Shown here: piece after piece, positions 2 to 48,608 of the stretch
Numbering within the stretch: the first letter of the stretch is position 1
Layout of the letters: every line of letters starts with the position of its first letter
Origin: Nitrospiraceae bacterium
GTDB lineage: Bacteria; Nitrospirota; Thermodesulfovibrionia; UBA6902
NCBI GenBank assembly: GCA_003599025.1
Contig: QZIL01000084.1
Coordinates: 4,285-68,284 of the forward strand
Direction of reading: 5' to 3'
Length of the DNA: 64,000 nucleotides
Notes under the pieces: generated by a model
What the model was told of the DNA's origin: nothing
The model's input: the letters and a program-made list of their open reading frames with translations, nothing else
Database searches by the model: none
Translations under genes and position numbers: made by a program

Positions 2-630
2 GGTACTGCTACGATTACGGCGCAGCTGAGCGCAGTCAGCAGTAAAAATGTGACCGTGCCGTTTACGGTAAGCGGCAGCAGCACGGCAACAGGCGGCGGG
101 ACGGACTATAGCATAACAGCAAGTCCAATAACTATCACTGCCGGGAATACGACTGCCGACATAACGGTCACGATAGCGGCAGACAGTCTTGATGAAGACA
201 ACGAGACAGTAATAGTAAATATGGGATCACCCACGAACGCGACCCAGGGGGCCACAACGACTCATACGCTGACTATCACGGATGACGACCCACTGCCTGC
301 AGTGACTTTCACAAGCGCATCGCAGGCAACTGCGGATGAAAGTGGTACTGCGACGATTACCGCGCAGCTGAGCGCGGTGAGTGGCAAAAACGTTACAGTA
401 CCGTTTACGGTTAACGGCAGCAGCACGGCAACAGGCGGCGGAACGGACTACAGCATAACTGCTAGCCCGATCACGATAATAGCCGGGAACGCATCGGCTA
501 ACATAACCGTGACGATAACGCAGGACAGTGTTGTTGAAGGTGATGAAACAGTAATAGTAAATATGGGATCACCTACAAACGCAACCCAGGGGACCATAAC
601 GACACATACATTGACCATTACTGATGATGA
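2..630 (+). repeat. Tandem 342-bp (114-codon) in-frame repeat encoding the Calx-beta-like modules; probably continues upstream of the window
   Basis: nt 2.. ggtactgctacgattacggcgcagctgagcgc recurs at nt 344.. ggtactgcgacgattaccgcgcagctgagcgc. Nucleotide identity stays high through ...actcatacgctgactatcacggatgacgac / ...acacatacattgaccattactgatgatgac. Confidence 0.8.
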
Positions 631-2908
631 CGTTGCCAGCGGTACAACATATACCGTTTGTAAAGTTGGACATGCAGATGCTCCATGTAATTACCAGAGT
701 ATAAATGGAGGTATTGACAGCGCATCTGTCTTAAATGGAGATACTCTGCTTGTTTCGGCTGACACTTACAGTGAAAATATTAATTTCGATGGCAAAAATA
801 TCACAATCCTGGCCAAGGTCGGCGCTGCCACAACTAAGATCCAGGGCGACGGTTCTGCCAATGCGGTAGTGTCCTTCCTGCTCGGTGAATCATCTGGAGC
901 GGTCATTGACGGCTTCACAATCGATAATCAGCGGGCCACGGGTGCGGACGGCAGGGGCGTCAAGATAACAAACAGTGCCACACCGACCATTAAGAACTGC
1001 ATTATAGTCGGCAATTTATTGACCACGCTTTCTTCAGGTGATTCCTACTGGGGCGGCGGCATCTATATCAACGGCGGCGGTGTGACTATCGATAACACTG
1101 TTATCGGACAAAACGGTGCTGCCAACACAGCTAACAGGGGATCAGGGATATATGCCATAAACGGACTTGATATAACAATATTGAATTCCACGATCAGTTA
1201 TAATTCAGGACGTGACTATGCCGGGATATATCTGGCTTCTATGACCGGTATGACTACCCTGACCAATACAAATGTGGTCTACAATGATGCTACCACGGGT
1301 TATATCACTGGCGGCATTTACGCTAACGCCAGTTCGATATCAATAACTGGCGGCTCTATCTCCAATAACACCGGCAAACTAGGTGCCGGTCTGCGGCTTG
1401 AAAATGTACCGACCATCACCACCATCAACAACGTGGTCATTAACGCCAACAATGCCGGGGGTAATATAGCTGGCGGTATTTATTCTATCAATTCGCCAAT
1501 GGCTATCAGCAATGGCACCACTATCAACAACAACACCTCCCGTGATGGCGCTGGTATCTACCTGAGCGGAAATTACAGCGGGTTCCCGGCTGGCACCAAG
1601 ACTACCATTGCCAATACGACTATTACAGGGAACAGCACCGGCGGCGGCTATCCTGGCGGCGGTATCTACTCTAGCGGATCGCCGCTGGAGATCTCCAACA
1701 GCAATATCTCATCCAACACGGCGAGGGCAGGATCAGCAATCCGTCTGGAGAGCGTCCCGATAGTGACCGTGATCAGCAATACTACGATCAACAACAATAT
1801 TGCCGACGGCACACAAACGGGCGGCGCGATATATTCCAACTCATCGCCGATAACCTTTACTGGCGGTACCATATCAGGCAACACTAATGGTCGTGAGGGC
1901 GGCGGTCTGTATCTGACCGGCAACTACTCAGCGTTCCCGGCCGGCACAAAAACCACCATTACAGGGACGACCATTAATGGCAATAGCTCCGGCGCTTATG
2001 TCGGCGGCGGTATCTACACCTCCTGCCCGATCACAATCAATGGCAATGCTGCTATCACCAATAACACGGGAAGTGCCGGTGGCGGTATTTATATCACCGG
2101 CCAGGCAGATGCCACAGTGATAGATAGCGTTACCATAACCGGCAACACAGCCACGAGTGGCAATAATGGAGGTGGTATCTACTCTACTGCTTCGCCACTG
2201 GCTATCAGTAACAGTACAATCTCCAGCAATACAGCAACCCGTCAGGGAGCAGCAATTTTTATCACTGGCGTCTATGCTACTACAAACACCATATCGAACT
2301 CGACTATTAACGGCAATAACGCCCAAACCAACTACAGCGGCGGCGCCATCTACACTGACCGGGCACTGCAGGTGGACAGGACCTATATTCAGGGTAACAG
2401 AGGTGGTAACGGTGCGGCTATTTACTCTAATACAACCCTGACCATCACAAACTCGGTATTAACCGGTAACGTTGCTGACAGAGGCACCAATGACGGCGGT
2501 GCCCTCAACGTCTCGGCCAGTACCACTATCACTAATTCCACTATTGCAGGCAACTATGCTACGCGTTATGCGGGTGGTCTGCAAGGCGCTGCGACGGTGG
2601 TCAACAGCATCTTCTGGGGTAATACCTCCGGCACATCAAACCCGCAGATCAATGGCGGAGCCACGGTCACCTATTCCGATGTACAGGGTGGTTATGCCGG
2701 TACCGGGAATATCAATGCTGACCCGTTATTTGTGAATTTCCAGCAGGCGACCAGCGGCAACCCGACCAGTGCGGGAGACTTCCACATCCAGTCCGGCTCA
2801 CCTGTCGTAAATCAGGGCACAGCAAGTGGAGCGCCTTCCAATGACATAGACGGTGACAGCAGGCCTCTGGGAGGTGGATATGATATGGGTGCGGATGAGA
2901 AAGAGTAA
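2..2908 (+). CDS. Secreted surface protein, 5'-truncated by the window edge: Calx-beta-like repeats, then a long right-handed parallel beta-helix (PbH1) region and a conserved C-terminal tail
   Basis: The frame of ORF 50..2908 stays open back to nt 2, where GTATITAQLSAVS repeats the later GTATITAQLSAVSG. The repeated unit NVTVPFTV.GSSTATGGGTDYSI...ITV.I..DS..E..ETVIVNM is Calx-beta-like. It is followed by many GGGIY / N.TI..N beta-helix turns. The tail reads DPLFV...GDFHIQSGSPVVNQG...DIDGDSRP...YDMGADE. Confidence 0.85.
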   Translation, partial: GTATITAQLSAVSSKNVTVPFTVSGSSTATGGGTDYSITASPITITAGNTTADITVTIAADSLDEDNETVIVNMGSPTNATQGATTTHTLTITDDDPLPAVTFTSASQATADESGTATITAQLSAVSGKNVTVPFTVNGSSTATGGGTDYSITASPITIIAGNASANITVTITQDSVVEGDETVIVNMGSPTNATQGTITTHTLTITDDDVASGTTYTVCKVGHADAPCNYQSINGGIDSASVLNGDTLLVSADTYSENINFDGKNITILAKVGAATTKIQGDGSANAVVSFLLGESSGAVIDGFTIDNQRATGADGRGVKITNSATPTIKNCIIVGNLLTTLSSGDSYWGGGIYINGGGVTIDNTVIGQNGAANTANRGSGIYAINGLDITILNSTISYNSGRDYAGIYLASMTGMTTLTNTNVVYNDATTGYITGGIYANASSISITGGSISNNTGKLGAGLRLENVPTITTINNVVINANNAGGNIAGGIYSINSPMAISNGTTINNNTSRDGAGIYLSGNYSGFPAGTKTTIANTTITGNSTGGGYPGGGIYSSGSPLEISNSNISSNTARAGSAIRLESVPIVTVISNTTINNNIADGTQTGGAIYSNSSPITFTGGTISGNTNGREGGGLYLTGNYSAFPAGTKTTITGTTINGNSSGAYVGGGIYTSCPITINGNAAITNNTGSAGGGIYITGQADATVIDSVTITGNTATSGNNGGGIYSTASPLAISNSTISSNTATRQGAAIFITGVYATTNTISNSTINGNNAQTNYSGGAIYTDRALQVDRTYIQGNRGGNGAAIYSNTTLTITNSVLTGNVADRGTNDGGALNVSASTTITNSTIAGNYATRYAGGLQGAATVVNSIFWGNTSGTSNPQINGGATVTYSDVQGGYAGTGNINADPLFVNFQQATSGNPTSAGDFHIQSGSPVVNQGTASGAPSNDIDGDSRPLGGGYDMGADEKE

Positions 2909-3384
2909 ACACACATAGCTTGCAGGTGAACTTGTCCTGCTTCCGTAAATCCTCACAACCCTGATACGATGCTCCCCGTATCAGAAAATACATTAACTGT
3001 TCCTGCACTACAAAAGGCAGTTTGCGTATATTCATCCCTGTTTCACTTAGCGCTGGTCATCTGTATTCAATCCAGCATTATATTTGTATGAAAGAAACAG
3101 TTTTCAGCGTCCATCAGACAGATTAGCAATTGCTGGGATACTGCCCTAATATCCTGGTGAAATCACGAATCAATTGGTGATTACACCAGGTTGAGCAAGC
3201 AATGTGTTTCAATAGCAACTGGTAATTTAATCAGCTATTCCCATCTCCAATTCAACATTACTAATAACAAAATCTACTAAATAATCGGATATGTATTATT
3301 TTATGAGGTGTTAGGGGACAGTCATGGCCTTAGGAAAAATATACTCATTAATAGAATGATAATGATATGCATATTAGTATGTTA

Positions 3385-3400
3385 TGGAATGAAAGTTGCT
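3385..3400 (+). promoter_or_regulatory. Candidate sigma54 (-24/-12) promoter upstream of the giant cytochrome gene
   Basis: TGGAAT-gaaag-TTGCT has GG (3386-3387) and GC (3398-3399) separated by exactly 10 nt, about 150 nt upstream of the start at 3550. The consensus is TGGCAC-N5-TTGCW, so the -24 element is only a partial match. Confidence 0.3.
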
Positions 3401-3549
3401 TAACCACTAATGGTGATTAACGAGAAGGAAGTGGGTTGATCGTGCTCATATAAAAGCATCTGAAAATAAAAGGTATTAATTATTTGCTGATATGTAAGAA
3501 AACACGAAGGAAATTGTGAAGTTATTTCATCAGTGAATCAGGGCGGGTT

Positions 3550-6500
3550 TTGATGATACGAAGCAGATACAGAGGGGTATCCATATCAATTGTAATTTAT
3601 AAACCGTTAATCACAATATTCGCATTGCTTCTGGCATTTATTGAGGCAACAGCGATTGACTCCCCTCATTATGACCTTAACAGAATAGGGTGCGATTCCT
3701 GCCATTTTGTGCGTGGAAGTGAACCATCGCTTTTACCGCCCTGGACATCACATGTGCCCCAGGACATTGATGATACACAATACAATACACTTTGCTGGAG
3801 TTGTCATAATGATATTGAGGCGCCTTATGTTCGGACTCATTCCAGCCTTAATACAGACAACGGGTACGGGGACTGGACAGTAGAGTGCAGGGTATGCCAT
3901 AACCCGCATTATCAGAAACAGTTCAGGACATATGGAAGCGCGAGCTATGTGTATTCAGGGGCATCAACAGGTTTGACTGCAAGCACAATAACAAAGACCG
4001 GAGCAGGGTGGGCGCTTAATGCATATAAGGGATTAGTGGTTGTACCGAATTTATTGCAGGTTAATTACAATTATAAAATTCTAAGCAATACATCCGATAC
4101 ACTGACTGTTCAGGGGCCGCTCAATTTAAGCAAGGCAGCAGTCGGCAATACCTTTGCAATTGTGTATGGCAAACTTGTCACTGATACAGCTAATCTGAGC
4201 CAAATAGCAACAACTCCTGCTAAGAGCGGCAGCAAGCCTGTCAGGTTTTTTAATTCAACCGGGGCCAATTCATTTGCGGACGGCAATGGCGTATACGATG
4301 GAATCTGTGAGGTCTGCCATACGCAGACTTTTTATCACAGGAATAATCCTTCTGGAAATCATTCACATAATAATGGGGTGAAATGCACTGTATGTCATAC
4401 CCATTCGGAAGGGTTCAAGGGAACGGGTTGCGATGTTTGTCACGGATACCCGCCGGTCAATGCAACAAGCGGGGGTCCTGCCGGATTAGCGGACTATAAT
4501 GGTTCCACCGGCTCTGCTACAGCCGGGGCACATGCACTGCATGTAAATACAATAGGTTATTCCTGCAATGAATGTCATTTAAACAGCGCGGGTTCAGGTG
4601 CAACTCATATCAGCGGCCTTATGATAACAATGGGTTTCTCTCTCGCGGGAGGCACTTACCCGGGAGGCATGTATGACGGACAGACGACTGCGAATTACGA
4701 CAGTAGCGAGCCAGATACTGTTGTGTCAAAAACAGGGACAATGACATGTACAAGCATCTACTGCCACAGTACAGGGCAGTCAATAACTGATAAAGATGAT
4801 TCTACACCGAGCTATGCATCCCCTGTCTGGGATGACCCTGTAAGCGGGGCATGCGGTACTTGCCACAATGTCAGCGAGGCATCAGGGCTAAACAGCGGGA
4901 GCCATGCAGAACATCTTGGAGGCTCAGGAGTAAGCGGTTGTGGAGACTGCCATGCTGGTGCTGCTGATGATGCTTCGTCATATAACTCATCAAATCATGT
5001 CAACGCCTCTATAAACGTAGACAATGCTTACACAGCAGGTGGAGCGCCCGGGAACGGATACGGTACATGTTCCACGGCAAGCTGTCATGACGATGGGACA
5101 GGTAATCTCGTTGTAACTCCTGTCTGGGGTACTGATGTTGCCAGCTGTACGGCATGTCATGCCGCAGTGCCGTCTACAGGAAGCCATCAAAAACATGTTG
5201 TAACCACCAGTTATAAAAAAGCAGATTGCGACAGCTGCCATGACGGTGCAGAGGAAAGCCTCATGCCTCCTGAGCAGCATCTTGACGGGAATATTGACGT
5301 ATATGACTCCGCATCAGGAGATCTCGGATATCCCGAAAACAAGTCGCCGGGTACTGCCTATGCAGCATGTTCAACAGCATACTGTCACAGCACAGGACAA
5401 TCGACTGCCAGCGGTAATTCATCAACGCCTGCCTACTCAACAGTAACATGGGGTGGTTCTGCCGGATGCGGGACATGTCATGGTGTAACAGAGGAGACAG
5501 GATTGATCTCAGGCAGTCATGCGGCCCATCTCGGGTCTGCGGGAGTGGCCGGCTGTAGTGACTGTCATACAGGAGCGGCCAATGATGCGTCATCATACAA
5601 TTCGATTGAACATATAAACAGATTCATAGATGTAGCCAATGCTTATTCGGCAGATGGTGCGCCGGGCAATGGATATGGGACATGTGCCGTAGCCTCCTGT
5701 CACGAAGACGGGACCGGTTCGATGGTAACAACTCCTGTATGGGGGAGTGTAACAGAATGTTCGGCATGTCATGCGGCAGCACCGTCAACAGGCAGTCATA
5801 CAAAACATCTTTTACAGAGCGGAGTTGCATGTAGTGACTGTCATGACGCGGCAGTGCAGGGAACAACTGCTCCAACACAGCATCTTGACGGCAATATAGA
5901 TGTTTATAATTCAACACCGGGTGACCTCGGCTATCCTCAGGACAAGGCAAAAGGCAGCGCATATTCAACCTGCTCAAACATATCCTGTCATGGTGGTACA
6001 AGTGCAACATGGGGCGGGACTGCATGTCTTGACTGTCACAGCATCTCACAGGGAAGCCGGGCAGCCATAACATCTCAGTTCAACGCGAATTCCCATCATA
6101 TTCAGGGGGCTGTTACAAACGAAAAATGTTACCAGTGCCACTGGGAGGCAAACATTGACGGGAGTATCAACAGCACTCATCACGGAGGATCAGGGGCATC
6201 CGGATCTGCCGTGGACCTCGTGATATACGGTGCCGGGGCAAGACCTTCGATATATACCTCAGGGACTACGGCAGTCCAGTACATGGCTAGCGGGACGAGG
6301 ACAGAGATACAGAGAATAAACAGCCATTGCCTTGGTTGTCACAGTGACCAGAACAATTCAACTACGCCTTTTGGGGACGGGAAGACGCCGAGACAGTACG
6401 CATGGGACGGCAGCAGTGTGGAGGCCCGATACTCCCAGACAGGGACGACTCCGTGGGGTAAATACAGCAGCGCCACATATCCGAACGTGACACCCAAGGA

Positions 6501-9500
6501 CAAGCGTACCAAGGCCTTTTCTGCCCACGGCAATGCAGTGAACAACGAAGGGGGCTGGGACCTGAACGAAACCTGGCCCAACACTAGGAGCGGTGCAGTT
6601 AATGTGGCCTGTTTCGACTGCCATAACTCTCACGGCTCAAGCGTAAGTGGAACGACTGCATCATACATAAGCGCCACGACCAGCGGCGGGATTCTGAAAG
6701 ACACTTCTGCAGGCAAAGGGGGATATAACGTTGATTACAGACCTGCGGCAGGAGGTACTGATGAAAACAGGAACATCCGTAATGCCGGCGCAAGTCTATG
6801 CTTTGACTGTCACCTTACGGCTGACGGAAGTGCTGCCGGAATCCCCTGGGGCTATCAGACAACTTTTGGTTCGACTCAGGCGGTCATCGGCTACTTTGAT
6901 TCACCTTACCTTTCTCCAGGCAGTTCAGGAATGCAGCAGCGTTACCCGTATAAGGCGCTGTTGCAAAACAAAGGCGGCCATTTCAGTGCCTCATCGCCGC
7001 TATCCAGTACACCGATGGGCACTATCAACGGGCTATGCACACCATGTCATGACCCGCATGGGGTCAGCCCCACTGCTGTCGGAATCTGTTCGAACACGGC
7101 ATATGTCACAAAAACAACCTGTCAGTCCGGCGGCGGGGTCTGGACAGTTACTCCCCAGTACGGAGTACCGATGCTAAAGGGCACCTGGATGACGTCACCG
7201 TATAAAGAGGATGCTGCACCTGCTTACAACACCTTCGGCACAGTGCGTGACAGTTCATATCCGACAGGACACGACGGGACGCCGAGAGAAGGTGTTCCAT
7301 ACCATATAGACCAGAACACCTTTGGTGCGAACATAAGGGCAACGGTAACCGGCATAACTCAGACAGCCTCCCAGTTTGCAGGATTGTGTCTGAACTGCCA
7401 TCCAAAAAACAGCCTTACGGACGGGACCAATGGCGGCACATGGAAGAGTGTTGACCGCATTCATGAGTCTGTAAGGGGATGGGGTGGCAATGTACGGCAT
7501 AACTATACCTGCGCAAAGTGCCATGTTCCCCATAACGGCTCATCATTGCCACGCCTCATGATAACCAACTGCCTCAATAGCAGGCATAAAGGGAGAGTCG
7601 GCAATAATACCTCTGCTGTGCTCTCAGGCAGCGGCAGTTGTGATGACTACAACTGCTATGGTGAGGCCCGGACCATCGGCTTTGGATGGTGGGAAGAGGC
7701 TTATGCCTTTGCATCCGGCGGCGGGCAGTTCCCCGGAAGCTGGAGCGGGTATTATCCCGGGAGTTACGGTGTGACATGCCATGAGAACAAGGAAGCTGAC
7801 CAGAGCTGGAATAATGTTACGCCCTGGACTAATAGCACTCCTTCTATAACGTCCGGCCCCAGTTCAACCGGGCAGTTGGTGCTTATGCACATGGATGAAG
7901 CGTCATGGAACGGGACTCCGGGCGAGGTCAGTGACAGTTCGGGAAGAAACAACAATGGTACTGCATACAGTGGCGCAAATACAGTAACCGGCGGGAGCAG
8001 CGGCAGGGCAGGCAGCTTTAACGGTACCAGTAACTCTGTTGTAATAAATTATTCACCACCTGTGGACAGTTTCACGATTGAAGCGTGGATAAAGCCGACT
8101 GCGACCCACCAGGTTGATTCTGAATCTGTCACGGGCACAGGCGGTACGTCGGGGCAAAGATATTTATTCTGGCCAGACCATAAAGGTGCAGAAGGAGGAG
8201 CAGGCATATCAGCGGGCACCAACGGTATTTCTGTTTATGAGCACGGCAGCGGCTACATGCCTGCAATGGCGGTATACAACGGTGCTATCAGTACGAGCCA
8301 GTGGACCCATATAGCTGTGGTTTACTCTGATAAGAAGCCGAGTATTTATGTAAACGGCGTACTTGTCCGCACAGGTCTCAAGTCTGCCAAAACACATGTG
8401 TATGCGCCTACTGTAATTGGCGGGGGTTCATATGGTTATTTCCCCGGGACTGTAGACGAGGTCTCTATTTATCAGGGGGCCTTGAGTGCTGATGAGATAA
8501 TCCTGCACTATCAGCAGAACAGTGCTGTTGTCTGTAACAGCACGGAAAAGAATATTGTATGGACTACTGATTTCGATTCCACGTCTTATGTTGACTTCGG
8601 ATTAACAGCGGGTTACGGATCAACAGCCGGGAATAGCTCCTCAGTAAAGAACCACAGTATTGTGCTGTCAGGCCTTTCAGCGCCAGCGACATATCACTAT
8701 AGAGTGCGTTCTTCCAATTCAAATGGAGAAACAGTATCCAGTGACTATACTTTTGACACATATACCTGTCCGCCTGCAACGCCGACCCTTACCTCACCGA
8801 CGGCGACATCAGTCAGCACTACCACCGTGACACTTGGGGCCAACGTAACTGCTTCCGGCGGCCCGGCCATTACAGCACGGGGCACAGTATGGGGTATCTC
8901 AGCGAACCCGACCGGTAATGCAGCGGCAGAAGGCGGGACCTCAACAGGGGTCTATACTCATTCAAGAACAGGGCTGCCTTCCGGTACACGCATTTACTAT
9001 CGAGGCTACGCAACAAACAGCGCGGGTACGAGGTATTCCCCTGACGGCAGTTTCTATACTGAGCCTTTGACACAGGCAGCCGGGGTGAATTTTACATCAG
9101 TATGGTCATCAGGCATGACAGTGAAATGGACTCGCGGGACCGGCGATGGGGTCCTGGTATTGATGCGGCAGGGTTCGGCAGTGGTCACTGATCCAACTGA
9201 TGGTATATATACAGCATATTCGGGAAATGCCTCCCTTGGAAGCGGGACAGACATAGGAGGTGCATATGTGATTTACAAAGGGACAGGCACCAGCGTGACG
9301 GTCAATGGTCTGGCTGCCGGTACAACATATAACGTAGCGGTCTATGAATATAAGGGTACGCTTAACACTGCTGCATATGCACAGGGCACTAATTACAGAT
9401 CCCCGCCGGCAACAGGCAGTCAGGCAACCAGCACAGGTAGCTCAGGGGGAACTGTTGTGTTTCCGATTTCTCACATGGTGAATTGTTATAGCGGGACTTT

Positions 9501-9942
9501 TGCAGCAGATGCCGGAAATATTATATGGGCCGGCCCTTATCTGGACGAATATGATGAATGTGATGTCGACCGTACATTTTTGATGTTCGACACTTCATCG
9601 CTGGGGGCCGGAGCAACAATTACATCAGCGAGACTTTATCTGGATTTCCAGACAAGGGACTACCTGTCTCAGAACGCAGTTACTAATATCCATGAATCAT
9701 CGTGGGTGTACCCTCCTAATTCAGGTACCTGCAGCAATGTGGGGACTTATCTGGCCAATAACACGGTGTTGGTTAATCAGGCCTTCGGACTTACCACCTT
9801 TAACATAAACCCTGCATCTATTAACAAAACCGGGAATACCGGATTTGCTGTCAAGGGCGCTGATGAAACCATATGTGACAATGCAGACCCTGGTTATAAC
9901 AGGGCAACTTCATATCTGGAAGTGGATTACACCTCAAACTAA
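3550..9942 (+). CDS. Giant extracellular multihaem c-type cytochrome (about 28 haem motifs) fused to LamG-like, FN3-like and DNRLRE-like C-terminal domains
   Basis: 2130-aa ORF with an N-terminal hydrophobic signal/anchor (PLITIFALLLAFIEATA). By eye I count 23 CxxCH and 5 Cx4CH (CTSIYCH, CSTASCH, CSTAYCH, CAVASCH, CSNISCH) in the first ~1400 aa. The Cx4CH...CxxCH pairing resembles the Geobacter-type multihaem repeat. About 7870-8520 is LamG/ConA-like (SFNGTSNSVVI...FTIEAWIKP...WTHIAVVY...IYVNGVLV...VDEVSIYQGALSADEI). About 8550-9420 holds three FN3-like modules. About 9450-9939 resembles a DNRLRE-type domain (RTFLMFDTSSLGAGATITSARLYLDF). Confidence 0.9.
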   Translation: MMIRSRYRGVSISIVIYKPLITIFALLLAFIEATAIDSPHYDLNRIGCDSCHFVRGSEPSLLPPWTSHVPQDIDDTQYNTLCWSCHNDIEAPYVRTHSSLNTDNGYGDWTVECRVCHNPHYQKQFRTYGSASYVYSGASTGLTASTITKTGAGWALNAYKGLVVVPNLLQVNYNYKILSNTSDTLTVQGPLNLSKAAVGNTFAIVYGKLVTDTANLSQIATTPAKSGSKPVRFFNSTGANSFADGNGVYDGICEVCHTQTFYHRNNPSGNHSHNNGVKCTVCHTHSEGFKGTGCDVCHGYPPVNATSGGPAGLADYNGSTGSATAGAHALHVNTIGYSCNECHLNSAGSGATHISGLMITMGFSLAGGTYPGGMYDGQTTANYDSSEPDTVVSKTGTMTCTSIYCHSTGQSITDKDDSTPSYASPVWDDPVSGACGTCHNVSEASGLNSGSHAEHLGGSGVSGCGDCHAGAADDASSYNSSNHVNASINVDNAYTAGGAPGNGYGTCSTASCHDDGTGNLVVTPVWGTDVASCTACHAAVPSTGSHQKHVVTTSYKKADCDSCHDGAEESLMPPEQHLDGNIDVYDSASGDLGYPENKSPGTAYAACSTAYCHSTGQSTASGNSSTPAYSTVTWGGSAGCGTCHGVTEETGLISGSHAAHLGSAGVAGCSDCHTGAANDASSYNSIEHINRFIDVANAYSADGAPGNGYGTCAVASCHEDGTGSMVTTPVWGSVTECSACHAAAPSTGSHTKHLLQSGVACSDCHDAAVQGTTAPTQHLDGNIDVYNSTPGDLGYPQDKAKGSAYSTCSNISCHGGTSATWGGTACLDCHSISQGSRAAITSQFNANSHHIQGAVTNEKCYQCHWEANIDGSINSTHHGGSGASGSAVDLVIYGAGARPSIYTSGTTAVQYMASGTRTEIQRINSHCLGCHSDQNNSTTPFGDGKTPRQYAWDGSSVEARYSQTGTTPWGKYSSATYPNVTPKDKRTKAFSAHGNAVNNEGGWDLNETWPNTRSGAVNVACFDCHNSHGSSVSGTTASYISATTSGGILKDTSAGKGGYNVDYRPAAGGTDENRNIRNAGASLCFDCHLTADGSAAGIPWGYQTTFGSTQAVIGYFDSPYLSPGSSGMQQRYPYKALLQNKGGHFSASSPLSSTPMGTINGLCTPCHDPHGVSPTAVGICSNTAYVTKTTCQSGGGVWTVTPQYGVPMLKGTWMTSPYKEDAAPAYNTFGTVRDSSYPTGHDGTPREGVPYHIDQNTFGANIRATVTGITQTASQFAGLCLNCHPKNSLTDGTNGGTWKSVDRIHESVRGWGGNVRHNYTCAKCHVPHNGSSLPRLMITNCLNSRHKGRVGNNTSAVLSGSGSCDDYNCYGEARTIGFGWWEEAYAFASGGGQFPGSWSGYYPGSYGVTCHENKEADQSWNNVTPWTNSTPSITSGPSSTGQLVLMHMDEASWNGTPGEVSDSSGRNNNGTAYSGANTVTGGSSGRAGSFNGTSNSVVINYSPPVDSFTIEAWIKPTATHQVDSESVTGTGGTSGQRYLFWPDHKGAEGGAGISAGTNGISVYEHGSGYMPAMAVYNGAISTSQWTHIAVVYSDKKPSIYVNGVLVRTGLKSAKTHVYAPTVIGGGSYGYFPGTVDEVSIYQGALSADEIILHYQQNSAVVCNSTEKNIVWTTDFDSTSYVDFGLTAGYGSTAGNSSSVKNHSIVLSGLSAPATYHYRVRSSNSNGETVSSDYTFDTYTCPPATPTLTSPTATSVSTTTVTLGANVTASGGPAITARGTVWGISANPTGNAAAEGGTSTGVYTHSRTGLPSGTRIYYRGYATNSAGTRYSPDGSFYTEPLTQAAGVNFTSVWSSGMTVKWTRGTGDGVLVLMRQGSAVVTDPTDGIYTAYSGNASLGSGTDIGGAYVIYKGTGTSVTVNGLAAGTTYNVAVYEYKGTLNTAAYAQGTNYRSPPATGSQATSTGSSGGTVVFPISHMVNCYSGTFAADAGNIIWAGPYLDEYDECDVDRTFLMFDTSSLGAGATITSARLYLDFQTRDYLSQNAVTNIHESSWVYPPNSGTCSNVGTYLANNTVLVNQAFGLTTFNINPASINKTGNTGFAVKGADETICDNADPGYNRATSYLEVDYTSN
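4747..5970 (+). repeat. Internal in-frame tandem duplication (units 4747..5367 and 5368..5970) of a six-haem module within the cytochrome gene
   Basis: The protein segments C(T/S)..YCHSTGQS...CGTCH...SGSHA.HLG..GV.GC.DCH.GAA.DASSYNS..H.N..I.V.NAY.A.GAPGNGYGTC..ASCH.DGTG....TPVWG.....C.ACHAA.PSTGSH.KH......C..CHD.A......P.QHLDGNIDVY.S..GDLGYP..K..G.AY..C align over about 200 aa. A third unit starts at 5971 (CSNISCH) and then diverges. Confidence 0.85.
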
Positions 9943-10190
9943 TTATGGTTTGGACCGGTCAGGAACCGGAACGCACCATGCAGAATTAATATAGTAAACC
10001 AAGGGAACTCTGACCCGTGATATAAAATCGGGATTTCTTGTACAAGTTATACAGCAACATCCGTTATTTCATGCAGTTCAGTTTTATCAATATCCCGCAC
10101 CTTAGTGTTGAAATTTAAAAGTTTCTGCTGTAATATCATCGAAGATTTCAATATGAAACATAGCTGGAGCAGACTTGCGTTGCGAATGAT

Positions 10191-10811
10191 ATGAAACTGG
10201 ATGTCCCGGTAATAGGAATTCTGAGGGGAGTGGAGGCTGCCTTTTTCAGGAGCATCATGGACGTCTCGTTTGTCTCGGGTCTTCAGGCCATAGAGATTAC
10301 TATGAACACTGATCAGGCCCTGAATATCGTATCGGCAAACATAGCATCTGTGCCTTCCGGAAAGTTACTGGGGATGGGGACCATACGCAATCTTGCAGAG
10401 GCAAGAAAGGCCGTAGAAGCAGGCGCCATGTTCCTCGTTACGCCGAATACGGACCCTGAAGTAATCCGGTATGCAAAATCAAAATCTGTCCCGATAATTT
10501 CAGGTGCGCTTACGCCAACTGAAGTATACACCGCATGGTCTGCCGGAGCTGACATGGTAAAGGTATTCCCATGCCGGTCTTTTGGTCCGGAGTACTTCCG
10601 TGAACTCAGAGGACCGTACGAACTGATACCATTGGTCGCAGTAGGGGGTGTCGATATGGACAACATCAGGGAGTATTTTGCTGCAGGTGCCGGGGCTGTG
10701 GGGGCTAGTACCTCGCTTTTTGGCAGGAAGGCATTAATGGAACGTGACCTCGAAGCTATTGCCCAAAACGTAAAAAAATTTATTGCCCTTTGCCCTGATC
10801 TGAAGAAATAA
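10191..10811 (+). CDS. eda: KDPG / 4-hydroxy-2-oxoglutarate aldolase family protein (Eda-type class I aldolase)
   Basis: VIGILRG...AIEITMNT...GMGTI.....A..AV.AGA.FLVTPN...ISGALTPTEV..AW.AGADMVKVFPC...GP.YF.EL.GP...IPLVAVGGV are hallmarks of the Eda TIM barrel. Confidence 0.8.
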   Translation: MKLDVPVIGILRGVEAAFFRSIMDVSFVSGLQAIEITMNTDQALNIVSANIASVPSGKLLGMGTIRNLAEARKAVEAGAMFLVTPNTDPEVIRYAKSKSVPIISGALTPTEVYTAWSAGADMVKVFPCRSFGPEYFRELRGPYELIPLVAVGGVDMDNIREYFAAGAGAVGASTSLFGRKALMERDLEAIAQNVKKFIALCPDLKK

Positions 10812-10864
10812 ATTATAATATCCACTCAATATATATATTCTAATTATCATTAAGGAGACGATAC

Positions 10865-11815
10865 ATGTACAGACCGGAAATAAAAGTGATAGACTGCTCC
10901 GTCCGTGACGGGGGATTAATGAATAAGTGGCAGTTCAGTGACGACTTTGTCTGCAAGGTTTATACAGCCTGCACTGAGGCCGGAGTCGATTACATGGAGA
11001 TCGGCTATCTGAGTTCAGAGTCCGCATTTTCACGTGCCGAAGTCGGTCCATGGAAATTCTGCGCTGAAGCCGATATCCAGCGCATTATCGGGAAGAGTGA
11101 AAAAAGGATAAAGCTCTCGGCAATGGCAGACATAGGCCGTATCGATTATCAGGACATTCCGCTTAAAGCCGACAGCTCTCTGGATATGATAAGAGTTGCA
11201 TGTTACGCGCATCAGACTGACGCTGCCATAGACCTTGCACACCATTGCATCGATAAAGGGTACGAGACCACCATTAACGTTATGGCGGTATCTACCGTGG
11301 GACTGAGGGAGCTGGATGAAGCGCTTACAGATCTCTCTAAAAGCCGCGTTCCGATTATTTATGTTGTGGACAGCTTCGGTTCTTTTTATTCCGAGGACAT
11401 AGAGCTGCTCGCAAAAAAATACATGGAGTATCTGCCTGGCAAGACCATCGGTATTCACTGCCACAATAACCAGCAGCTGGCCTTTGCCAATACCATATCC
11501 GCTATAATCTCCGGTATTAATTACCTCGATGCAAGTCTGTACGGCATAGGAAGGGGAGCCGGCAACTGTCCTCTGGAGCTTCTTATCGCATTTTTGAAGA
11601 ACCCCAAATTCAAGGTGCGTCCGCTTATCGAGGCTATAGAGGCAGAGATTCTTCCGTGGCAGGAGAAGATCGACTGGGGGTACTACATTCCATATATGGT
11701 TTCAGGAGTACTTAATCAGCATCCGCGTGCTGCCATGGCCCACATGGAATCGGACAAAAAGAACAGGATAGTCCAGTTCTTTGATCAGATGACCAACGCT
11801 ACAGAGCTGGGATAA
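10865..11815 (+). CDS. HMGL-like (DRE-TIM metallolyase, pyruvate carboxyltransferase-fold) aldolase
   Basis: N-terminal IKVIDCSVRDGG...GVDYMEIGY and later IGIHCHNNQQLAFANT match the DRE-TIM metal-binding pattern (D-R-E ... H.H). The RBS is aaggagacg, 5 nt before the ATG. Confidence 0.7.
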   Translation: MYRPEIKVIDCSVRDGGLMNKWQFSDDFVCKVYTACTEAGVDYMEIGYLSSESAFSRAEVGPWKFCAEADIQRIIGKSEKRIKLSAMADIGRIDYQDIPLKADSSLDMIRVACYAHQTDAAIDLAHHCIDKGYETTINVMAVSTVGLRELDEALTDLSKSRVPIIYVVDSFGSFYSEDIELLAKKYMEYLPGKTIGIHCHNNQQLAFANTISAIISGINYLDASLYGIGRGAGNCPLELLIAFLKNPKFKVRPLIEAIEAEILPWQEKIDWGYYIPYMVSGVLNQHPRAAMAHMESDKKNRIVQFFDQMTNATELG

Positions 11816-20519: not shown

Positions 20520-22124
20520 ATGGAAGTTATGCTAAATAGAAAAAAATATAAATTAACATGTACTGGATTGCTATTATTATTTGCCCTGATAGCAGTTCTA
20601 ATAGTAGTTATGCAAAGTTTGGTATTTGCTGTTTCTTCTATCAATATTCCTGAAATACCACCATTTCCAGCAATAATTTCAACTGGTAACACTTACCATG
20701 TTTCTAAAGATATTGGCAGTAATTTAAATGATGGTTCTTCTGAGCATCCGTGGAAAACACTCCAATATGGGGTTGACCAGGTCAAAGCAGGAGACACGCT
20801 TATTGTTCATGCTACACCTGCTGGGTATAATGAATGGGTGTACATTTCAAACTCCGGTACAGAAAGTAATTGGATTACAATAAAAGGTCGTGATGGGGAA
20901 GATGGACAAAAAGTTATTATAACGGATTACGAACTAAGACTTAAAAGTTCTGCTGCATACATTTCGGTTGAGAATATAAATATTCATGGTAAATATTGGT
21001 CAACACTCTTTCTGAATTCCAATACACATCACTTGGCATTTAATAACATTGAAATTGATTGTCAGAATAGCAGTGAAAATTATACAGGAGTAGTGGTTCA
21101 TGAGGGCGTTAATAATGTCTGGTTCAGGGATATGTATATACATAATTGCGGTTATGAAAAGCTTAGTCCGACGGATGCAAGTGGAGTGTACATGATGCGT
21201 CACCTTAGCACAGATCCTTTAATTACGGATATTGTTTTTATGAATGTTACGGTGAGAGATAATAATGGAGATGGCATTAGCAGCACGGCAGTTGATTCTG
21301 TATACTTTGATAGATGTAATGTAACTAATAATACTGGAGATGGATATGATATATATGCCAGGACAAGGGCGGTTTTTAAAGATATTATTTCTGCCGAGAA
21401 TGGAGAGGGATTACGTTATCAGGGAGTGGGAATCAAGGCATGGTCTAAAGAAACATGGCTCATTAATGCCCTCATATATAAGAATTACTATGATGGAGTA
21501 TTATTTCAGTCTGTTGAGGATAATAGCAAGTTCTTTGTTTTAAACTCAACATTTGTTGACGATGTTTTTTATAATAGAAGTGGTTATGGAACAAACCAAG
21601 TTTATCTTTACAACAATGTGTTCTATCCCCTTAACGCTTACCCGCCCACTGTCATATTTGAGGATATATCTAAACAGACACTTGCAGGAGAGGATAATAA
21701 TTATTACTTCTCAGATAATAATGCTGTTGCCTTTAAATACAAAGAGGGGGGCAAGACTAGAAATTATACGTTCAAAGAAATGGGGGATGGAACATGGTAT
21801 AAATCAACAGGTTATGGGTCAAAAAATATCGGAATCATAGGGTCGCTTGATCACCTTCCAGATCCAGGTTTTACTGACACATATAATAATCTATTTTCTT
21901 TAAAGAAAGGCAGTCTTGCTATAGATGCGGGGATCGATCTGAGTCTAATATTTGATAATTATGATAAAACAAGAATATGTAATCGTAATCCCGATATAGG
22001 TGCAATTGAGTATTGTTCTTGTCCAAATGAATCTATACCAGCAAATTCTGGACAACTTTGTAGTGATCTAGTCCTAATAGACCGTATGGCTCCTGTTGCC
22101 CCAAAGAGGCTAAGAATTCTGTAG
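20520..22124 (+). CDS. Secreted right-handed parallel beta-helix repeat protein (pectate-lyase fold)
   Basis: Signal/anchor LLLLFALIAVLIVV, then GSSEHPWKTLQYGVDQVKAGDTLIVH, then repeated N..F....I.N.G / GDGI turns. The C-terminus has LKKGSLAIDAG...NPDIGAIEY. The gene and its flanks are visibly AT-rich. Confidence 0.75.
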   Translation: MEVMLNRKKYKLTCTGLLLLFALIAVLIVVMQSLVFAVSSINIPEIPPFPAIISTGNTYHVSKDIGSNLNDGSSEHPWKTLQYGVDQVKAGDTLIVHATPAGYNEWVYISNSGTESNWITIKGRDGEDGQKVIITDYELRLKSSAAYISVENINIHGKYWSTLFLNSNTHHLAFNNIEIDCQNSSENYTGVVVHEGVNNVWFRDMYIHNCGYEKLSPTDASGVYMMRHLSTDPLITDIVFMNVTVRDNNGDGISSTAVDSVYFDRCNVTNNTGDGYDIYARTRAVFKDIISAENGEGLRYQGVGIKAWSKETWLINALIYKNYYDGVLFQSVEDNSKFFVLNSTFVDDVFYNRSGYGTNQVYLYNNVFYPLNAYPPTVIFEDISKQTLAGEDNNYYFSDNNAVAFKYKEGGKTRNYTFKEMGDGTWYKSTGYGSKNIGIIGSLDHLPDPGFTDTYNNLFSLKKGSLAIDAGIDLSLIFDNYDKTRICNRNPDIGAIEYCSCPNESIPANSGQLCSDLVLIDRMAPVAPKRLRIL

Positions 22125-24657: not shown

Positions 24658-25386
24658 TTAATTATTTATTTCAGCCAGCAGATTTGCGGCAATTTGAGGG
24701 TCAAGACTCTTCAGTATCTCATATTCCCTCAGGGCGGATTCCCTGTCTTTTAACTGCAGACTTGAAATAGCAATATTGTAATGGGCGCTTGCAGCATCAG
24801 GGGTACGTGCCAGGACTTTATTAAACAGCTCTATCGCTTTTTCATGCATGCCTGATTCTCCATATGCTATGCCGAGATTCAGTAAGGCATCAGTATCAAG
24901 AGGATCTATTTTAATGGCCTGTTCATACGCTTCTGCTGCTTCTTTATGCATCTTAAGTTTTCCGTATGCAATGCCCATGTTATAATACGCGTCGGGTCCC
25001 TTTGGATTATTATTGATTTCATTCTTGTAGGCCTCTATCGCTTCCCTGTATCTTCCCAATTTCCCGTACGCGACACCAAGGTTGTAACTGGAGTAAACAT
25101 CCCGGGGATTGATCCTTATTACATTCTTGTATGCCTCTATGGCCTCTTCATATCTGCCGGTATCGTCATATGCAACGCCCAGACTGTAATAAGCGCCTGT
25201 GTTTTCAGGGTGTTTTTTTATTTCTTCCTTCAACCGCTCGATATATTTGTCGTGTTCGCTGAGATTGATCTGGGGATCCGCAAACAGTGCGGCAGGGAAC
25301 AGCAGCATTAATAATGCGAGAATACAGACGCATGTATTCAGGTTGAGAAGAACTGATTTTGCCGACGATATTTTTTTAGAAGGCAC
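24658..25386 (-). CDS. Tetratricopeptide repeat protein, secreted/anchored
   Basis: N-terminal hydrophobic segment, then about six 34-aa repeats (AYY.LG.AY...G.Y.EAIEAYK..I.I.P). Confidence 0.85.
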   Translation of the reverse strand: MPSKKISSAKSVLLNLNTCVCILALLMLLFPAALFADPQINLSEHDKYIERLKEEIKKHPENTGAYYSLGVAYDDTGRYEEAIEAYKNVIRINPRDVYSSYNLGVAYGKLGRYREAIEAYKNEINNNPKGPDAYYNMGIAYGKLKMHKEAAEAYEQAIKIDPLDTDALLNLGIAYGESGMHEKAIELFNKVLARTPDAASAHYNIAISSLQLKDRESALREYEILKSLDPQIAANLLAEINN

Positions 25387-48038: not shown

Positions 48039-48608
48039 TTAGTGCTCGTATTTGAGCGGGAAATGTTCATGTGTCTTTTTAAGCCTGTCCTTGATATCAA
48101 ATTTGTATTTGGCATCCACTTTTTCATTGAACGGGCTGTCTTTTCCATGGCAGTCCATGCAGTTGTTTTCCTTTTCAGAGGGAAGAGACAGTCCTGCTTT
48201 CTTTACGTCAACTAATTTAAACTGCTTGTCTTTTTTCATAATCTGGCTGAAGTCCGCTCCAGGGCCGTGACATGACTCGCACTGAACATCGATTAAATCC
48301 GGGGTCTTTTCCAGACTCACAAAACCGCCCGGTTCACCATAACCTGTAGTATGACACTTCAGGCAGTCCTTATCGTTTGTGTAGTCTTTGGCAGGGTCCA
48401 GGCCAGCTTTCTTCTTTTCATCTGCCTTAACACCAGCCTTGAGATTCTCAAAACTCTTTGCCATAGTAGTTTCTGACCATGACTTGAACTGTTTCATGTG
48501 ACAGGCCTTGCATTTCTTTGCCCCTATGTATTCGGCGGCACTGGCAGCAGATACAAAAAACGTGATCAGAATGAGAGAAAGAAAGGCTCCGGAAATTTTC
48601 TTGAACAT
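48039..48608 (-). CDS. Periplasmic tetrahaem c-type cytochrome
   Basis: Signal peptide and four CxxCH motifs (CKACH, CLKCH, CESCH, CMDCH) in 189 aa. Confidence 0.85.
   Translation of the reverse strand: MFKKISGAFLSLILITFFVSAASAAEYIGAKKCKACHMKQFKSWSETTMAKSFENLKAGVKADEKKKAGLDPAKDYTNDKDCLKCHTTGYGEPGGFVSLEKTPDLIDVQCESCHGPGADFSQIMKKDKQFKLVDVKKAGLSLPSEKENNCMDCHGKDSPFNEKVDAKYKFDIKDRLKKTHEHFPLKYEH

Follow-up and report, generated by a model that had tools for sequence, protein, structure and literature searches.

Most of what is understood about extracellular electron transfer comes from a small number of proteins of Shewanella and Geobacter, and how a haem wire is aimed at a surface or at a partner is an open question. 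It is raised anew by one gene in a 64,000-nucleotide stretch of a Nitrospiraceae contig (QZIL01000084.1; the whole stretch is called the window below), which encodes in a single polypeptide a long series of c-type haem motifs followed by a haem-free, adhesin-like tail. A first-pass annotation of the window was aware of no characterised cytochrome built in this way. Is the fusion genuine, does it recur elsewhere, and what might such a protein do? We found that one intact open reading frame (ORF) carries the fusion and that an independent assembly is collinear with it, and that related proteins carry the same modules with tails that appear to be exchanged. As to function, we favour an outer-surface or extracellular electron conduit that is held in position by a tail binding a glycan or a surface, a reading that we place slightly on the probable side.

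The haem region comprises three distinct modules

The gene, its export signal and the modules of its haem region are as follows, with protein residues numbered from the ATG at 3553.

3553..9942, forward strand: whole gene, a single unbroken ORF (2129 amino acids from the ATG) for a predicted secreted fusion protein with a multihaem c-type cytochrome part
3553..3654, forward strand: Sec-type signal peptide, residues 1-34, read by eye from the sequence; basic n-region, hydrophobic PLITIFALLLAF, then ATA followed, after the end of the peptide, by IDSPHYD
3655..4587, forward strand: N-terminal 'head', residues 35-345; 7 CxxCH motifs, 10 other histidines, a beta-rich insert at about residues 120-250, and invariant residues
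4747..5967, forward strand: two tandem repeats of about 207 amino acids, residues 399-604 and 606-805; recognised by pairwise alignment and by TIGR01904/PF09698 matches
5971..7842, forward strand: conserved 'core', residues 807-1430; 9 haem motifs (1 Cx4CH, 8 CxxCH) in 624 amino acids, 16 other histidines and 6 non-motif cysteines

The ORF call spans 3550..9942 on the forward strand and opens with a TTG, one codon before the ATG at 3553. The ATG is the likely start, as it has GGGCGGG just 5' of it and the public protein cluster for this gene begins at the same codon. The computed mass of the mature apo-protein is 218 kDa, rising to about 235 kDa with 28 haems, and its computed isoelectric point is 5.7. 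No lipobox cysteine is read in the signal peptide, and relatives carry equivalent signal peptides, which end immediately before a conserved (I/L)D-x-PH motif.

All 28 haem motifs (23 CxxCH and 5 Cx4CH) fall within residues 47-1324, the first at nucleotide 3691 and the last at nucleotide 7510, and the last 800 residues are free of them. The first-pass annotation had arrived at about 28 by eye, between about 3690 and 7600, and both its count and its coordinates were correct. When the residues of the protein were shuffled 2000 times, the mean number of motifs was 0.14 and the maximum 2. With motifs this far above chance, and with non-motif histidines at least as numerous as motifs in every haem region, the protein classes as a multihaem c-type cytochrome, its haem loading being predicted. 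The pairing of Cx4CH with CxxCH, which had been likened to the repeat of Geobacter cytochromes, is indeed recognised by the corresponding models: NCBIfam TIGR01904 (CxxxxCH/CxxCH) matches in five stretches (E 2.1e-28, 97.9 bits against a cut-off of 27) and Pfam PF09698 in four (34.7 bits against 21.7), so that the protein belongs to this family by both. Further matches in the Pfam and NCBIfam scans were to Cytochrome_C7, Cytochrom_c3_2 and Paired_CXXCH_1.

The two tandem repeats, 61.5% identical to each other in amino acids and 64.7% in nucleotides, each consist of two triheme units (Cx4CH, CxxCH, CxxCH). They emerged by direct pairwise alignment; a BLAST of the whole protein against itself gave no off-diagonal matches. 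Their copy number varies among relatives. Together they hold 12 haem motifs and 12 non-motif histidines; this exact match, with a surplus of histidines elsewhere, fits bis-histidine ligation.

The core differs from the repeats in its haem density, with about 69 residues per haem as against 34. Within a set of 141 proteins it was found in 41. It aligns at 48-87% identity with 40 relatives, and many of its residues are invariant, extra histidines among them. Cysteine 1340 (about 7570-7572) is the invariant cysteine of a TNC motif. Cysteine 1409 and histidine 1410 (7777-7782) form a C-H dipeptide, in which the histidine is invariant and the cysteine nearly so, and which lacks a second cysteine 3-5 residues upstream to pair with; this could be a haem site with a single thioether, a very long CXnCH site, or a disulfide. 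In the window protein and its closest orthologue, P0002, the core is also interrupted by a two-cysteine insertion, GICSNTAYVTKTTCQSGGGVWT, at about 7084-7150 (residues 1178-1199). A similar two-cysteine insert occurs in one more distant core-bearing relative and is missing from P0003-P0005, and the inserts that further relatives carry at core positions, such as the Kelch repeats of P0012, are far larger. Inserts of such different sizes indicate that the core tolerates inserted modules. Non-haem cysteines are confined to the core (6) and the tail (6), a distribution which, together with the signal peptide, fits an exported protein able to form disulfides.

These properties of the core could mean that the protein is an extracellular or periplasmic redox enzyme. 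The core would then be catalytic, the other haems would feed or drain its electrons, and the tail would target it to a polymeric or particulate substrate in the manner of a carbohydrate-binding module. The sparse haems of the core, its many invariant non-ligand residues, the TNC cysteine and the C-H dipeptide without a partner all fit this proposal, as does the common use of LamG and CBM96-type domains to target enzymes to polysaccharides (the match to arabinanase AbnA and the presence of CBM96 among relatives are described below). A Geobacter multihaem enzyme with a cysteine-ligated haem (PMC13510729) provides a precedent, though not a homologue. Yet the protein has neither CxxCK nor another known catalytic motif, no match of the NrfA, HAO, OTR or MccA type was found in Pfam, NCBIfam or PDB, the invariant histidines suffice to give every core haem a distal ligand, and the core is also found tail-less, as the C-terminal end of many relatives. 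We regard a redox enzyme as unlikely.

The haem region is made of three distinct modules (head, repeats and core) rather than of one uniform wire. The first-pass annotation had taken the haem density over 1400 residues to imply a long conduit; the core, however, has only about one haem per 69 residues.

The haem-free tail and its exchange among relatives

The remainder of the protein divides into five modules, and its 3' end coincides with a segment that differs from the closest orthologous locus.

8026..8499, forward strand: LamG/concanavalin A-like jelly roll, residues 1493-1650; Pfam Laminin_G_3 (PF13385), E 6.5e-21, 75.5 bits against a cut-off of 27.6
8536..8760, forward strand: FN3-like module a; Pur_ac_phosph_N 32.9 bits against a cut-off of 30 and fn3 E 0.013, both with the module alone
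8785..9087, forward strand: module b, a beta-rich repeat module; no Pfam or NCBIfam match
9082..9360, forward strand: FN3-like module c; Pfam fn3 25.9 bits against a cut-off of 25 in the whole protein, 23.8 bits alone
9400..9939, forward strand: C-terminal DNRLRE/CBM96-like domain with 4 cysteines; NCBIfam DNRLRE_dom match at nucleotides 9565-9870
9433..10105, forward strand: cassette differing from the closest orthologous locus (L002), delimited by blastn

A serine-, threonine- and glycine-rich linker lies between the core and LamG. An AlphaFold2 model of the tail (13-row alignment) had a mean predicted local distance difference test score (pLDDT) of 50 and is trustworthy only for LamG, where the pLDDT was 75-93, and in part for modules a and c. 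Foldseek matched concanavalin A-like jelly rolls, for example domain 4 of the arabinanase AbnA (5hon; TM-score 0.52), and all Foldseek matches of the tail reflect this jelly roll only. A sequence search of PDB with the whole protein gave marginal matches only, to the same AbnA domain (5hon; E 0.0023), to a Geobacter cytochrome fragment and to NrfH. The assignment to the Laminin_G_3, or concanavalin A-like lectin, fold is therefore solid, the hidden Markov model, AlphaFold2 and Foldseek all agreeing with what the first-pass annotation had proposed.

The three FN3-like modules announced after LamG fared less evenly. Modules a and c are near the thresholds of their models (in the whole-protein scan, module a scored 29.3 bits for Pur_ac_phosph_N, just under the cut-off of 30), and module a was modelled as a beta-sandwich with a pLDDT of about 55-71. 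The middle module, b, matches no model. About 30 tandem repeats of P0084, a 'beta strand repeat' protein of Pedobacter, are homologous to module b, and P0012 carries it in duplicate. In relatives it pairs with module c, and the number of b-c pairs varies from 1 to 3 per protein, as would be expected of a spacer or stalk.

The terminal domain had been compared with DNRLRE carbohydrate-binding domains. Its 180 residues scored 26.5 bits (E 5.5e-6) with NCBIfam DNRLRE_dom (NF033679), below the cut-off of 34, aligning to positions 30-142 of the 164-position model, and no Pfam family, CBM96 (PF24517) included, matched. Its homologues are rare: a word-indexed search returned 2 proteins, and an exhaustive HMMER (phmmer) search was needed to reach 21 representative proteins in 1.84 billion at E<=1e-3. 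When the window domain and 19 of these phmmer relatives were scanned, DNRLRE_dom was found in 16 of the 20 sequences (best E 2.2e-100) and Pfam CBM96 in 6 of the 20 (best E 1.5e-69). Close relatives scored 24-33 bits with DNRLRE_dom at the matching position, and in P0144, P0146 and P0147 the DNRLRE_dom match fell inside the stretch aligned to the window domain. Through these intermediate sequences, the terminal domain is homologous to bona fide DNRLRE/CBM96 members and forms a rare, divergent branch of the group. 'DNRLRE-like' is accordingly a fair label by sequence, whereas the curated rule does not allow it to be called a DNRLRE domain outright. The domain also occurs in P0145, another giant CxxxxCH cytochrome, and in haem-free proteins with an OmpL47-type barrel, LapB repeats or a PxKF domain. 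Because it is common to such proteins with surface-type modules, the description of the C-terminus as adhesin-like seems reasonable.

We considered the possibility that the fusion is an assembly chimera or a collapsed repeat, its cytochrome and adhesin-like parts coming from different genes. The contig derives from a metagenome, the gene contains internal repeats and its terminal domain is rare, all of which might be expected of an artefact. Yet the closest orthologous locus (L002), in the independent Logan assembly SRR29054604, is collinear over window positions 3553-9432 in one high-scoring segment pair of 5888 bp (81.9% identity; ends at 7459 and 13335 in L002). This alignment runs straight through the region near 7.7 kb, where a coverage break had been envisaged as the sign of a chimera. 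Moreover, P0004, P0005 and a Desulfobulbus metagenome-assembled genome (MAG; L003) span the core-LamG junction. FN3-like modules followed by the same terminal domain are carried by a Geobacterales MAG (L004), a Pelobacter MAG (L006) and P0145, with module c directly before that domain in L004 and P0145. The internal repeats, only 65% identical in DNA, are too divergent to have collapsed during assembly, and there is no composition break. On these sequence comparisons, a chimera is essentially excluded. The haem sites and the non-redox modules are thus joined in a single polypeptide, as had been claimed.

The same alignment also located a difference between the two loci. Homology to L002 begins exactly at the ATG (3553) and ends at 9432, directly after module c; no alignment was obtained over 9433-10105, and it resumes over 10182-11127, again at 81.9% identity, at the downstream aldolase gene. 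In the place of the DNRLRE-like domain, L002 has a glycine-rich domain and a CarboxypepD_reg gene. Seen at the sequence level, this amounts to a clean exchange of a C-terminal tail cassette between close relatives. P0002, P0004, P0005 and P0012 likewise end in a glycine-rich domain of about 170 residues (FNYTG...GGGGGR...GGAGGGG...) instead of the DNRLRE-like domain.

We scored 267 relatives at E <= 1e-5 and mapped the modules on the best 120. Among these 120, the head is the module most widely common to the family: it occurs in 93, including proteins with quite different tails, whereas the repeat unit is found in 60 and the core in 41. Laminin_G_3 is carried by 24 of the 120, and other relatives end in beta-helix, Kelch, Big_5, RCC1 or F5/8-C modules; in one Nitrospirae MAG, three adjacent genes have a common head and different tails. 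P0002 is the only one of the 120 with the full head-repeat-core-LamG-FN3 order. Proteins of Desulfobulbus, Geobacter, Pelobacter and Geobacterales MAGs, at 45-65% identity, repeat the order core-LamG-FN3(-DNRLRE-like), as does P0145, so that the architecture is not a one-off.

A scan of one genome per species gave 177 family loci, mainly in Geobacter and its relatives, and also in Thermodesulfovibrionia/Nitrospirae, Desulfuromonadales and Desulfobulbaceae; several of them repeat the order core-LamG-module a. Isolates with family members include Geomobilimonas luticola, Pelotalea chapellei, Geobacter sp. AOG1 and G. hydrogenophilus; the Geobacter relatives have about 26 motifs in 1300-1700 amino acids. 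Named relatives from Nitrospirae, Nitrospiraceae, Desulfuromonas and Geobacter are annotated as CxxxxCH/CxxCH domain cytochromes. Most proteins of the family bear the label 'hypothetical' or just 'CxxxxCH/CxxCH domain-containing', which the present analysis corrects. By sequence, the window protein is one member of a widespread, uncharacterised modular family of Nitrospirota, Geobacterales and Desulfobulbales, its exact terminal module being rare. The family build is an N-terminal seven-haem head, a variable number of triheme repeats, a conserved core of low haem density, and swapped tails (LamG, Kelch, beta-helix or glycine-rich).

The conservation of the tail bears on another possibility, namely that it is a pro-domain or an assembly inhibitor, which would be cleaved after export to free a polymerising or diffusing haem part. 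In Geobacter, the precursor of OmcZ has a haem-free C-terminal part, which the protease OzpA cuts off before nanowire assembly, and the linker between core and LamG would be in keeping with such a scheme. However, the tail accounts for a third of the protein, its LamG-to-module-c part is 66-77% identical in amino acids to that of full-length relatives, and the variable number of b-c pairs speaks for a stalk with a function more than for an expendable piece. In addition, no protease gene adjoins, and the protein has no sequence similarity to the nanowire cytochromes in PDB. A cleaved pro-domain is, in our judgement, improbable.

Genomic setting and proposed function

Two features immediately upstream of the gene bear on the locus.

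2..2908, forward strand: 3' part of the upstream gene, a second predicted giant cytochrome fusion; Calx-beta and right-handed Beta_helix (Pfam); its 5' part lies outside the window
2909..3552, no strand: AT-rich intergenic spacer of 644 bp, G+C about 0.40

The upstream gene had been described as a Calx-beta/beta-helix surface protein. Both domains were found, but the gene also encodes a cytochrome fusion: in the full contig (L001, 2-7192) it comprises at least 2396 amino acids, being ended by the contig edge, and the part outside the window contains four haem motifs (CTDCH, CLQGGCH, CPSCH and CTHCH) near the N-terminal part. It resembles head-bearing beta-helix fusions such as P0093. With both haem motifs and a beta-helix in the upstream gene, the locus reads as two tandem giant cytochrome fusions with different tails.

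The intergenic spacer is presumably the promoter region of the cytochrome gene itself. It is unrelated to the region upstream of the orthologue, and a sigma-70 consensus scan of it gave no score above shuffle expectation; Rfam, tRNA and promoter/terminator scans found nothing informative at the locus. Downstream of the gene lie a 2-keto-3-deoxy-6-phosphogluconate (KDPG) aldolase, an HMGL-like enzyme, and an RND efflux system with a TetR regulator, the rest of the window being housekeeping. A 534-residue Beta_helix protein (20520-22124, forward strand) and a TPR protein (24658-25386, reverse strand) are encoded 10-15 kb downstream of the cytochrome gene, and the TPR protein matches Pfam TPR_CcmH_CycH at 48.7 bits against a cut-off of 42; any link of the two to the cytochrome would be putative. 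The sole other cytochrome of the window, at 48039-48608 (reverse strand) and 38 kb away, is a c554-like tetrahaem protein of 189 amino acids (Pfam Cytochrome_C554, E 3e-27) whose gene adjoins DUF2064 and glycosyltransferase genes. Its presence indicates that the organism makes other c-type cytochromes. The host is an uncultured bacterium of the Nitrospirota: named relatives of the GlyS protein encoded in the window come almost without exception from Nitrospirota, Nitrospirae or Thermodesulfovibrionia MAGs (identity up to 77%), the exception being one Deferribacteres MAG at 65%, and an AcrB protein of at least 90% identity bears a Nitrospirota annotation.

At the loci of relatives, an NHL beta-propeller gene lies upstream in 22 and a CarboxypepD_reg protein downstream in 16, and some Geobacter loci also have NosD-like beta-helix, ResB-like, DsbD-like and TPR proteins. 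In six loci of the Geobacter group and Nitrospirae (L027, L029, L035, L023, L014 and L075) the order is NHL beta-propeller, giant cytochrome, CarboxypepD_reg protein (about 260 residues), NosD-like beta-helix protein (about 835 residues), OpuAC-like protein, ResB-like protein (308 residues), NicO/DsbD_2-like membrane protein and CcmH-like TPR protein. These genes, missing as a set from the window, may serve specifically in maturation or assembly. NHL genes adjoin predicted outer-surface cytochromes of Desulfovibrio ferrophilus and belong to the Uet gene set of Tenderiales (PMC9769857, PMC10734462), and their frequent adjacency to relatives of the window gene was counted in favour of the conduit proposed below.

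According to the mechanism that we propose, the protein would leave the cytoplasm by the Sec route as a multihaem c-type cytochrome of about 235 kDa, assembled from shuffled modules that include three Ig/FN3-like spacers in the tail. Its haem chain would carry electrons over tens of nanometres, as a conduit at the cell surface or beyond it. The tail would bind a glycan, a polymer or a surface, whether of the cell's own envelope or matrix, of an external mineral-organic surface, or of a partner cell, and this binding would fix where the wire ends. Since the head is conserved and the tail is swapped, docking or electron entry is probably the role that the head has throughout the family, and the tail is probably the end that confers target specificity. 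The b-c modules would serve as a stalk of adjustable length.

Several observations weigh against this proposal. A plain wire has no need of a core with so low a haem density and such enzyme-like conservation, and the AlphaFold2 model of the core (residues 820-1430, 41-row alignment) was unusable, with a mean pLDDT of 45. In the tail, module b and the terminal domain were modelled with low confidence, and the DNRLRE_dom score of the latter stayed under its cut-off. No C-terminal sorting signal or anchor was found in the window cytochrome. No porin, periplasmic partner cytochrome, type II secretion or cytochrome maturation gene adjoins the gene within the window, so that the partners which the first-pass annotation had proposed to look for, porin-cytochrome or type II secretion genes, are not near it. 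When the neighbours typical of relatives (NHL propeller, CarboxypepD_reg, NosD-like, ResB-like and DsbD-like proteins) were sought in the window, only a weak TPR match was obtained.

The absence from the window of a recognisable outer-membrane translocation partner, with a Sec signal peptide as the only export signal, would also suit a protein that stays in the periplasm, as an electron store or a periplasm-spanning wire whose tail binds peptidoglycan or the inner face of the outer membrane, with nothing extracellular. Periplasm-spanning cytochromes with 21-27 haems have been proposed for PCC3 (PMC10734462). However, the length expected of 28 haems and five beta-modules exceeds the width of the periplasm; for comparison, a 27-haem 'long wire' protein has been estimated at about 350 Angstroms, as against 170 for the periplasm (PMC11492766). 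Furthermore, the tail modules are common to haem-free proteins with surface-type modules, and paralogues with beta-helix, Kelch and LamG tails fit an outward-facing diversity better. A purely periplasmic role seems to us quite unlikely.

The outer-surface conduit can be extended to the family as a whole. Its members may be 'cytochrome adhesins', in which a common haem wire with a docking head is retargeted to glycans, minerals or partner cells by recombinational exchange of C-terminal cassettes. The two differently tailed tandem paralogues at this locus and the clean cassette swap in the closest orthologue bear on this idea, which we offer as a tentative and rather unlikely one. If it were true, the tail would set the partner of electron exchange, including direct interspecies electron transfer in the deep subsurface. 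In any case, a conserved wire with exchangeable lectin-like or adhesin-like ends offers a testable handle on how wires are aimed. Members occur both in cultured isolates of the Geobacter group, where knock-outs may be possible, and in uncultured Nitrospirota of the subsurface, about whose respiration little is known.

Comparison with known cytochrome systems

It was from Geobacter sulfurreducens that the TIGR01904/PF09698 family was originally defined; the family name covers the repeat only, and none of its members has been assigned a function. The window protein scores above the cut-offs of both models with four to five units, but it adds to them the head, the conserved low-density core and a haem-free tail of 700 residues. 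With DNRLRE/CBM96 modules, similarly, its terminal domain shares the alignment and differs in its sub-threshold score and its rarity.

Like the decahaem cytochromes MtrC/OmcA and the porin-cytochrome complexes (Mtr, Pcc, PCC3), which are surface-exposed multihaem systems passing electrons to solids and have beta-rich non-haem domains, the window protein combines haems with beta-rich parts. It has far more haems, however, and its non-haem part is terminal rather than interleaved. The model for domains II/IV of MtrC/MtrF (Mtrc-MtrF_II-IV_dom, PF22113), which many relatives carry, was not listed for the whole protein at E <= 1 or for the core at E <= 10, which sets it apart from the MtrC/OmcA group. 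Nor does it belong to a porin-cytochrome conduit of the MtrCAB, Pcc or PCC3 type, as no porin or partner cytochrome adjoins its gene. When the whole protein was compared by phmmer with all PDB chains, no nanowire cytochrome (OmcS, OmcE, OmcZ) came up at E <= 1, which separates it from that group as well. A link to the pentahaem selenoenzyme MccSep (PMC13510729), a tetramer with five haems and a selenocysteine residue, was dropped, no similarity being seen.

A survey of Desulfuromonadia describes an uncharacterised, predicted-extracellular 'long wire' cluster, whose Geobacter metallireducens representative has 27 haem motifs and a mass of 130.7 kDa (PMC11492766). Compared by description, this cluster resembles the window protein in having a long haem chain in a single polypeptide, a predicted extracellular location and a place outside porin-cytochrome operons; unlike it, it has no fused LamG, FN3 or DNRLRE described. 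Neither this survey nor a paper on Geobacter cytochrome diversity mentions such fusions, and searches for papers that join multihaem cytochromes to Laminin G, Laminin_G_3 or FN3 brought up none in which the architecture is described. The earlier remark that no characterised cytochrome of this build was known to its author agrees with the literature searched.

Analogous giant fusions have, however, already been described from genomes of anaerobic methanotrophic (ANME) archaea, in contrast to the bacterial LamG/FN3-like/DNRLRE-like fusion, which was not found in the literature searched. In ANME, MHC-A as well as MHC-B has S-layer domains and MHC-C a pectin-lyase-like domain (Chadwick et al. 2022, PMC9012536). 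These cytochromes have been proposed to carry electrons through or beyond the envelope, their sugar-binding part perhaps recognising the cell wall of a partner (PMC9012536). As in the window protein, a very large multihaem part is fused to non-redox domains that integrate into the envelope or bind sugars, and the upstream gene, with its haems and beta-helix, mirrors MHC-C. The ANME proteins differ in being archaeal, in their S-layer (DUF1608), peptidase M6-like and N-terminal pectin lyase domains, and in the C-terminal transmembrane helices of A and B. The likeness is a functional analogy, drawn from the description in PMC9012536, to proteins that are themselves also known from genomics only. 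By this analogy, the giant ANME cytochromes with S-layer or pectin-lyase-like domains are the closest published analogues of the window protein.

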